Origin: a virus | Taxonomy: Duplodnaviria; Heunggongvirae; Uroviricota; Caudoviricetes | Virus record (IMG/VR): IMGVR_UViG_2645727743_000027 | DNA: 7,777 nt | Strand: one strand, 5' to 3' | Part shown: in pieces, positions 4,328 to 4,414 of the stretch | Numbering within the stretch: the first letter of the stretch is position 1 | How the letters are laid out: the number at the start of each line of letters is the position of its first letter | The notes under the pieces: model-generated | What the model was told of the DNA's origin: nothing | The model's database searches: none | Seen by the model: only the letters and a program-made list of their open reading frames with translations | Program-made: the position numbers and the translations under genes

Positions 4328-4414
4328 GGCGAAAAAGAAGTACGCAACAACGACTTCATTGCACGCATCAAAGATGAGCTTGAGGGGGAGGGTTACGAAA
4401 TTTTCGTAACCCCC

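Follow-up and report, generated by a model that had tools for sequence, protein, structure and literature searches.

The window, by which we mean the whole stretch of 7,777 nucleotides analysed here, corresponds to the early-left arm of a lambdoid prophage in E. coli and carries the genes in the order ral, cIII, kil, gam, bet, exo ... xis, int and host mdtA. Matches to the lambda cIII thermoregulator (RF01804; 812-870, + strand, 88.5 bits) and to the host Sib antitoxin RNA (RF00113; 7541-7683, + strand, 137.6 bits), the latter adjoining mdtA, are expected in a lambdoid prophage whose insertion site is near sibA/mdtA. Between an ASCH-domain gene and an Ant-like gene there is a terminator-like hairpin that has a T-run (4184-4205, + strand). 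Another hairpin, TTTTCCCC...GGGGAAAA (4990-5012), lies just past the stop codon of the Ant-like gene, and similar ones are found after homologues elsewhere. The features treated below are the following.

4232-4975, + strand: 247-codon Ant-like gene containing the palindrome, a pseudogene in this lineage
4325-4327, + strand: in-frame TGA (codon 32); CGA in intact 99.9%-identical alleles, mostly TGT/TGC (Cys) across the family
4382-4391, + strand: purine-rich, Shine-Dalgarno-like (SD-like) run GAGGGGGAGG (codons Glu-Gly-Glu), the last 2 nt in the stem
4390-4400, + strand: left arm GGGTTACGAAA (last base of Glu53, Gly54, Tyr55, Glu56, first base of Ile57); pairs with 4402-4412 and covaries with the right arm in homologues
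4401, + strand: palindrome centre; in the folded single strand the loop is 4400-4402 (AUU)
4402-4412, + strand: right arm TTTCGTAACCC (last base of Ile57, Phe58, Val59, Thr60, first base of Pro61), complementary to the left arm
4415-4417, + strand: ATG, codon of the internal Met62; solely in the TGA allele it may by chance allow a restart
5465-5490, + strand: second coding hairpin TTTGCTTTCC-AATTTG-GGAAAGCAAA, perfect over 10 bp, in the AntA-domain antirepressor gene 5298-5921

The Ant-like gene and its palindrome

In RefSeq (PGAP), 4232-4975 is entered for this lineage as one CDS with an 'internal stop'. The corresponding 247-aa gene (WP_000609351.1) is intact in a 99.9%-identical prophage, where CGA stands instead of TGA. 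Since the intact allele differs only at this codon, the palindrome corresponds to codons 53-61 (..E-G-Y-E-I-F-V-T-P..) and ATG 4415 to Met62. The first-pass annotation had suggested that the palindrome regulates the 186-aa product of the ORF 4415-4975. The TGA at 4325-4327 shares the frame of that ORF, the element lies inside the 247-aa CDS and the ATG is an internal Met codon, so the palindrome is no dedicated regulator of a 186-aa gene. Judged by the intact allele, what looks like a '186-aa ORF with a regulatory palindrome' represents the remaining 3' part of a gene with a nonsense mutation, and for annotation the case shows that an apparently separate ORF of this kind can have such an origin.

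The stop allele is not a singleton, as the TGA is also found in the loci L001, L002 and L028-L030. In 240 related loci the position codes for Cys (TGT/TGC), in the intact 99.9%-identical allele for Arg (CGA). The TGA allele of L002 contains no further stop, and within the gene it is separated from the window by 13 substitutions (10 synonymous, 3 not). The ORF of the TGA allele may thus be under purifying selection through read-through, restart or recombination.

The 247-aa protein matches PHROG 1726 'anti-repressor' over its full length (E = 1.7e-96), and no Pfam match was obtained, which includes the KilAC/ANT domain. The ~90 aa at its N-terminus have their homologous counterpart in an internal segment of P1/P7 Ant1/Ant2, with a nucleotide identity of 83.5% to P7 ant over 273 nt, and the C-terminal part is different. 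By homology the gene can be regarded as antirepressor-like. For the N-terminal domain (Ant-N), a Foldseek search of the PDB with an AlphaFold model revealed nothing below E = 0.1, only faint winged-helix and KH resemblances.

In the immI region of P1 and P7, ant1 and ant2 encode nested in-frame products under the control of the c4 antisense RNA. The window gene shares with the ant genes of these phages the homologous N-terminal part, and P7 has the same palindrome with one loop change, while P1 ant carries the weakened version TTTTACAC-AAAAA-GTGCAAAA. It differs from them in its C-terminal part as well as in its location, which is on the lambdoid pL side and not behind c4-icd. We know of no description of this hairpin in P1 or P7, and a literature search for a coding hairpin in Ant-N/P1/P7 or analogous genes found none.

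The palindrome at 4390-4412 has the form GGGTTACGAAA-T-TTTCGTAACCC and consists of two 11-nt arms which are 100% complementary and separated by 1 nt; as a folded single strand it forms a 10-bp stem with a 3-nt loop. The right arm is followed by CC (4413-4414) and then by the ATG. In these points, a perfect inverted repeat with 11-bp arms ending 2 nt before ATG 4415, the first-pass annotation was right. The GGAGG, however, which it had placed at 4388-4392, is located one base further upstream at 4387-4391, so its last two G fall within the stem.

In 3000 first-order Markov shuffles of the window, 0.018 perfect hairpins with 11-bp arms (loop ≤6 nt) are expected per window, and 1.5% of the shuffles contain at least one. 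Folding as RNA, which had been proposed as a check and was run on 4370-4430, gave -18.2 kcal/mol (z = -3.2), and none of 200 shuffles folded as well. The 27-nt core of the palindrome alone gave -14.0 kcal/mol (z = -4.9). Only two perfect stems of at least 10 bp (loop ≤6 nt) are present in the window, and both are located in antirepressor-type genes. The palindrome is not due to chance, and the covariation in homologues described below far outweighs these single-sequence statistics.

An intrinsic terminator can be rejected: there is no U-tract, the + strand continues with CCCCCATGGATAAG and the - strand with TCCCCCTCAAGC, and a terminator scan was silent at the site. The promoter scan gave none at or near the palindrome. 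Rfam 15 revealed no match at 4390-4412 even at E ≤10, and the scan of the whole window gave none there.

Conservation of the pairing between the two arms

In eleven phage homologues with nucleotide identities of 67-100% an inverted repeat is present at this place without exception, with differing arms. The first-pass annotation had considered an absent or degenerate palindrome in homologous phages as evidence against its reading; the palindrome is kept in them, and it covaries. Examples are given here in codons.

window, P7: GGT TAC GAA ATT TTC GTA ACC
RCS47: ACC TAC GAA ATT TTC GTA GGT
an Stx2a phage: TAC TAC ... GTA GTG
JL22: CAC TAC ACA AAA AGT GTA GTG
Klebsiella phage: TTT TAC ACA AAA AGT GTA AAA
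P1 (one A.C mismatch): TTT TAC ACA AAA AGT GCA AAA

About 265 loci from genomes, viral contigs and metagenomes were reduced to 100 unique segments, nearly all of which contain a perfect stem of 8-12 bp at the same offset. These sequences were taken from databases and de-duplicated only by exact identity, and they are connected through common descent and recombination; therefore none of the counts given here are counts of independent events. For the pairing statistics, 53 distinct hairpin sequences were compared in a codon register free of gaps. Standard pairs occupy 92.5% of the stem cells, in comparison to 27-45% when the partner is slid by 1-3 columns and to 71.7% in shuffles. Seven of the ten stem pairs show two-sided changes. 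The covariation score is 0.566 vs 0.167, and 0 of 500 shuffles reach the observed score. RNAalifold, applied to 16 diverse segments of 130-140 nt, predicted the same helix, and this was the only helix with compensatory changes.

A neighbour-joining tree was built from the 195-nt flanks, which diverge by 27% on average and by 41% at most. On it the three outer pairs switch their state 15-23 times without losing their pairing, the inner ones 5-6 times and TAC/GTA not at all; these counts are inflated by recombination and are not numbers of independent mutations. Across the family only the central TAC/GTA is fixed, while the three outer and the three inner pairs have repeatedly been swapped for other Watson-Crick pairs. 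P7 and RCS47 are alike upstream but diverge once the hairpin is reached, so a recombination joint may lie at or beside the stem. Within the domain, variation and indels are most frequent in the segment just 3' of the hairpin (~4413-4455 in the window), which corresponds to the turn of a predicted beta-hairpin. In locus L102 a perfect 9-bp palindrome is retained while compensating frameshifts alter the peptide. This is weak evidence, because all three indels are in homopolymer runs, the protein is truncated and an assembly error is possible.

The stem spans seven codons, x-Tyr-x-x-x-Val-x, which encode the first strand of the predicted beta-hairpin. In the AlphaFold model, residues 56-61 (EIFVVQ) form a beta-strand, which is followed by a variable turn, a strand (67-74) and a helix (75-82). 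One could assume that the palindrome is only a by-product of protein constraint or of chance, namely that the peptide x-Y-E-I-F-V-x happens to have self-complementary codons. Tyr TAC and Val GTA as well as Glu GAA and Phe TTC are indeed reverse-complement codon pairs, and Tyr and Val are conserved residues. However, synonymous codons are frozen solely within the stem: Gly is always GGT (15 of 15 and 40 of 40), Tyr always TAC (93 of 93), Val always GTA (87 of 87) and Lys always AAA (18 of 18). The invariant Gly just upstream of the stem, in contrast, is encoded by GGG (36), GGT (31), GGA (19) and GGC (11), and the invariant Leu and Arg there by six codons each. The choice of the Phe codon in the stem follows the opposite arm: it is TTC in each case in which the partner codon is GAA, and TTT in each case in which it is AAA.

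The flanking residue pairs G/T, T/G, F/K, H/V and Y/V are always encoded by reverse-complement codons, and the Gly..Thr (GGT..ACC) of the window is swapped to Thr..Gly (ACC..GGT) in RCS47-type sequences. As these residues are six apart within one predicted beta-strand, co-evolution at the protein level is implausible. In addition, an analogous palindrome in AntA genes is read in two different frames, and the chance expectation per window is low (see above). An origin as a by-product or by chance is therefore already strongly disfavoured, and we regard it as extremely improbable. Taken together, the pairing, the two-sided changes and the frozen codons in the stem indicate that the base pairing itself is maintained. 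It is the complementarity of the arms that is conserved, rather than the peptide or the sequence of the arms.

A plausible binding site for a dimeric protein was the DNA-level reading of the first-pass annotation. Such an operator in double-stranded DNA might be recognized by the winged DNA-binding-like domain which the gene itself encodes, with half-sites centred on TAC...GTA and 12 bp apart. The perfect dyad symmetry and the invariant TAC/GTA core, with about one helical turn between the centres, would fit, and sites within the gene of their own binder have a precedent in the lambda ori iterons in gene O. A search of the window for the half-site GTTACGAAA with at most one mismatch gave 4 matches vs 1.6 expected, and two of them are the arms themselves, so there are no additional copies beyond chance; nor is a promoter close by. 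The seven variable positions are exactly complementary across at least five outer and at least three inner arm variants in mixed combinations. With so many arm variants, numerous specificities would have had to co-evolve, although the putative recognition helix hardly varies. The complementarity also reaches the 1-5-nt centre, which is not required of operators. Arms that change freely but stay complementary fit intramolecular pairing better than recognition by a protein, and a dimeric-protein site is not favoured; we consider it very improbable.

Nucleic-acid elements within coding regions are well known, for example the replicase operator hairpin of MS2, the picornavirus cre and the lambda ori iterons mentioned above. 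As in these systems, an element overlaid on an ORF constrains the codons, and the encoded segment is tolerant. The stem described here differs from them in being short (9-11 bp) and in having a variable, A/T-rich loop of 3-5 nt. From the comparative data we conclude that the antirepressor-like gene contains an undescribed and unusually well-supported coding-embedded stem-loop, which is conserved and likely functional.

Translation initiation, mRNA structure or DNA palindrome

In the genes 38 and 25 of phage T4 a split Shine-Dalgarno arrangement is known, in which the initiation region is bridged by a hairpin. The allele in the window is similar, as its SD-like purine run is ~23 nt away from the AUG with a stable hairpin in the spacer. 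It differs in that the AUG is an internal Met codon, which is missing in most hairpin-bearing homologues, and in that the hairpin is coding and conserved for itself. With a structured initiation region of this kind, intact alleles could make a 186-aa isoform from the internal start, or the TGA allele could make a product by re-initiation. In one clade, with ...ACC CCC ATG GAY and including P7 ant, the order is GAGGGGGAGG, the 23-nt stem-loop, CC and AUG; in the window a stem of -14 to -18 kcal/mol stands between the SD and the AUG. For the homologous ant genes of P1 and P7, the annotation gives two products in one frame, Ant1 and Ant2. Moreover, the TGA allele persists in the diverged copy with 13 substitutions, 10 of them synonymous, and something downstream may thus still be under selection.

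The idea of the first-pass annotation that the stem brings the GGAGG near the AUG can be upheld as far as the geometry in this allele is concerned, which is split-SD-like. It does not hold for the family, in which only 15 of 97 distinct variants, forming a single 'TPMDK' clade that includes P7, have an in-frame ATG after the stem. The hairpin is equally well kept without this ATG, and regulation of the 186-aa product cannot be its conserved role. The SD-like run is accounted for by the Gly-Glu codons of the conserved DEL[ED]GE motif, and two nucleotides of the GGAGG are sequestered by the stem. Intact alleles have the identical arrangement, and consequently nothing has evolved after the nonsense mutation. 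A nested start at the hairpin corresponding to that of Ant2 was rejected as well: the annotated P1/P7 ant2 start is located ~90 nt upstream of the homologous region and away from the hairpin, so ATG 4415 does not correspond by homology to the nested start of Ant1/Ant2. A split initiation region is in our opinion improbable as the role of the element. In the TGA allele the stem between the SD-like run and ATG 4415 could at most assist a fortuitous re-initiation; such a restart in this pseudogene is at most what the arrangement would explain, and not the existence of the element.

Three further candidates were rejected. Bacterial SECIS elements must follow the UGA within ~11 nt and have a conserved apical loop and a bulge. 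There is an in-frame UGA where homologues have Cys, and a coding hairpin downstream of it, as in a SECIS; the stem, however, starts 62 nt after the UGA, its loop is AUU without a SECIS-like loop or bulge, and the UGA is present in few alleles while the hairpin occurs family-wide. Neither this hairpin nor the second coding hairpin shows a complementarity of at least 9 nt to the neighbouring sRNA-Xcc1-like RNA that would make it a target. Programmed frameshifting at the A AAA AAC and G9 runs beside the stem can be dismissed, because these motifs are not conserved and are on the wrong side of the hairpin.

We favour the reading that the stem-loop in the antirepressor-like CDS has been selected and is most likely a cis-acting mRNA element which tunes expression, and to this we assign slightly less than an even chance. 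The element would work through intramolecular pairing of one strand, most likely of the sense mRNA, and would act in cis on the expression of a potentially harmful gene. Located ~160 nt downstream of the beginning of the ORF, a hairpin of 9-11 bp with -13 to -16 kcal/mol could impede ribosomes, or RNA polymerase if translation is uncoupled. Alternatively it could set the processing and decay of the mRNA; a 10-bp stem is short for RNase III. The element would be neither a terminator nor a promoter, and in general it would not be situated in a translation-initiation region.

The common, perfectly paired variants fold with -12.6 to -16.6 kcal/mol on either strand (z = -4.9 to -7), while the P1-type variant with its internal A.C mismatch reaches only -2.9 kcal/mol on the sense strand and -10.8 kcal/mol on the antisense strand. 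In favour of RNA are the position within a transcribed ORF, the folding energies of the common variants and a sense-strand G.T retained by several lineages of the KilA-N and Bro-N analogues. In an RNA element G.U is expected to greatly outnumber A.C. Among the mismatch cells of the Ant-N sense strand 5 are G.U and 7 are A.C (53 hairpins), and in a larger set the numbers are 7 vs 16 sequences. The KilA-N and Bro-N relatives lean to sense-strand G.U; the pooled numbers, ~8 G.U vs 3 A.C variant types, are not significant. That G.U is not commoner than A.C and that the P1 variant folds better as antisense strand counts against the mRNA reading. Arms with Watson-Crick pairs only, an A/T-rich centre and symmetric extensions of the stem would fit a palindrome acting at the DNA level equally well.

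Such a palindrome would form a hairpin or cruciform in single-stranded or supercoiled DNA and would be kept perfect by intramolecular template switching (quasi-palindrome correction), by which a mutation in one arm is either reverted or copied to the other arm. It may have no function, or a genome-dynamic one only, e.g. replication stalling and increased variation in the adjacent hypervariable wing loop, and it would persist since the protein tolerates changes in this part. For E. coli, templated mutagenesis at quasi-palindromes is established (Ripley; Lovett and colleagues). The E. coli hotspots resemble the element in their short perfect repeat, small loop, coupled changes in the arms and symmetric extension; they are, however, mutational phenomena in reporter genes and not retained across a diverged gene family.

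Beside the almost exclusively Watson-Crick pairing and the A/T-rich centre, three observations point to the DNA level. Symmetric extension is seen in L013, which has an extra codon per side, in L478 (11 bp) and in L538, which reaches 14 bp via one synonymous change, and this is the product expected of intramolecular template switching. The most variable and indel-rich region of the domain adjoins the hairpin on its 3' side, and perfect palindromes recur at comparable places in other gene families. On the other hand, the palindrome is kept in essentially every lineage although the flanks diverge by up to 40%, and this as well as the recurrence specifically in antirepressor-type genes, which in the window harbour both perfect stems of at least 10 bp, is hard to obtain without selection. 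Neutral palindromes should vanish by deletion or double hits. In KilA-N genes a sense-strand G.T persists in several diverged lineages and looks RNA-type. We regard the DNA-level explanation as a serious, though less likely, alternative. If it were true, the element would be a natural case in which a self-maintaining DNA palindrome shapes a protein-coding sequence by template-switch 'concerted evolution'.

Analogous hairpins and neighbouring features

The second coding hairpin of the window, at 5465-5490, lies ~167 nt into the neighbouring AntA-domain gene. It covaries as well: in 14 distinct homologue sequences 94.3% of the cells pair, and four pairs have double changes. One AntA subfamily reads the same palindrome in another frame, giving MIASQIREAK instead of ILLSNLGKQT. 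In P22-like loci the Bro-N genes beside Ant-N contain the covarying hairpins AGGTACTC-GAAGT-GAGTACCT and AGGGGTGGTC-AAACT-GACCACCCCT in the same codon register. The hairpin of P1 kilA, GAAACTATGCA-GAAT-TGCATAGTTTC, has 11 bp and in some copies 14 bp; diverged KilA-N relatives keep it as a quasi-palindrome with compensatory changes, and a second KilA-N subfamily has a different covarying stem of 9 bp. Loci with analogous hairpins are L005 (P1; 2592-2617), L102 (2473-2493), L052 (1939-1963) and L506-L523.

The N-terminal modules of such proteins have been grouped as the domain-swapping 'Bro network' (PMC10111431). The hairpins of all four families (Ant-N, AntA, Bro-N and KilA-N) directly precede a Gly-rich turn, and from the order of the motifs we infer an equivalent structural position in the other families. 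A comparison of the Ant-N domain with AntA and Bro-N by hhalign, for which the profiles were shallow, gave no significant homology. It is tempting to speculate that the antirepressor-type genes of the 'Bro network' share a previously unrecognised device, i.e. a covarying stem-loop of 9-14 bp ~160-230 nt into the ORF, but such a generalization is doubtful. The shared device would encode the first strand or the turn of a beta-hairpin, which is predicted for Ant-N and presumed by analogy for AntA, Bro-N and KilA-N. It could act post-transcriptionally as a shared brake on genes that would induce or kill the lysogen if their expression were leaky. In another version, it could be a self-templating DNA palindrome which is recognised by the protein segment encoded there or diversifies it.

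Antirepressors decide on the silence of prophages, and hidden layers of their control therefore bear on induction, including that of the Shiga-toxin phages which carry this gene. A hairpin that compensatory changes have conserved in the P1/P7 ant family, with its AntA, Bro-N and KilA-N analogues, would add a new cis element to those of classic model phages.

Directly upstream of the AntA gene the window contains a match to sRNA-Xcc1 (RF02221; 5170-5258, + strand) with 69.3 bits at a gathering score of 53, which is preceded by a promoter-like TTGACA-18-TATATT at 5055-5084. This layout of promoter, small RNA and AntA antirepressor is reminiscent of immI-type modules (promoter, small immunity RNA, antirepressor).

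In phage phi349 (L007), which represents PA2-like Stx2a phages, a run of nine G (713-721) is located immediately 5' of the hairpin (GATGGGGGGGGGTTACG). The G9 run adds one base and causes a frameshift, and the resulting 58-aa ORF ends at a TAA just past the stem; this ORF is probably the source of PHROG 12199. An in-frame G8 variant is present in L034. The G9 tract may be phase-variable, a fixed pseudogene or a sequencing artefact.

Several P22-like loci (L158, 1397-1420; L139, L140, L146, L162 and L178) have a covarying 9-bp hairpin ~30 nt upstream of the Ant-N start. Its variants include AGCCGATAG...CTATCGGCT and AACCGCCAG...CTGGCGGTT; the hairpin may serve as a leader structure or terminate the Bro-N gene upstream of it.
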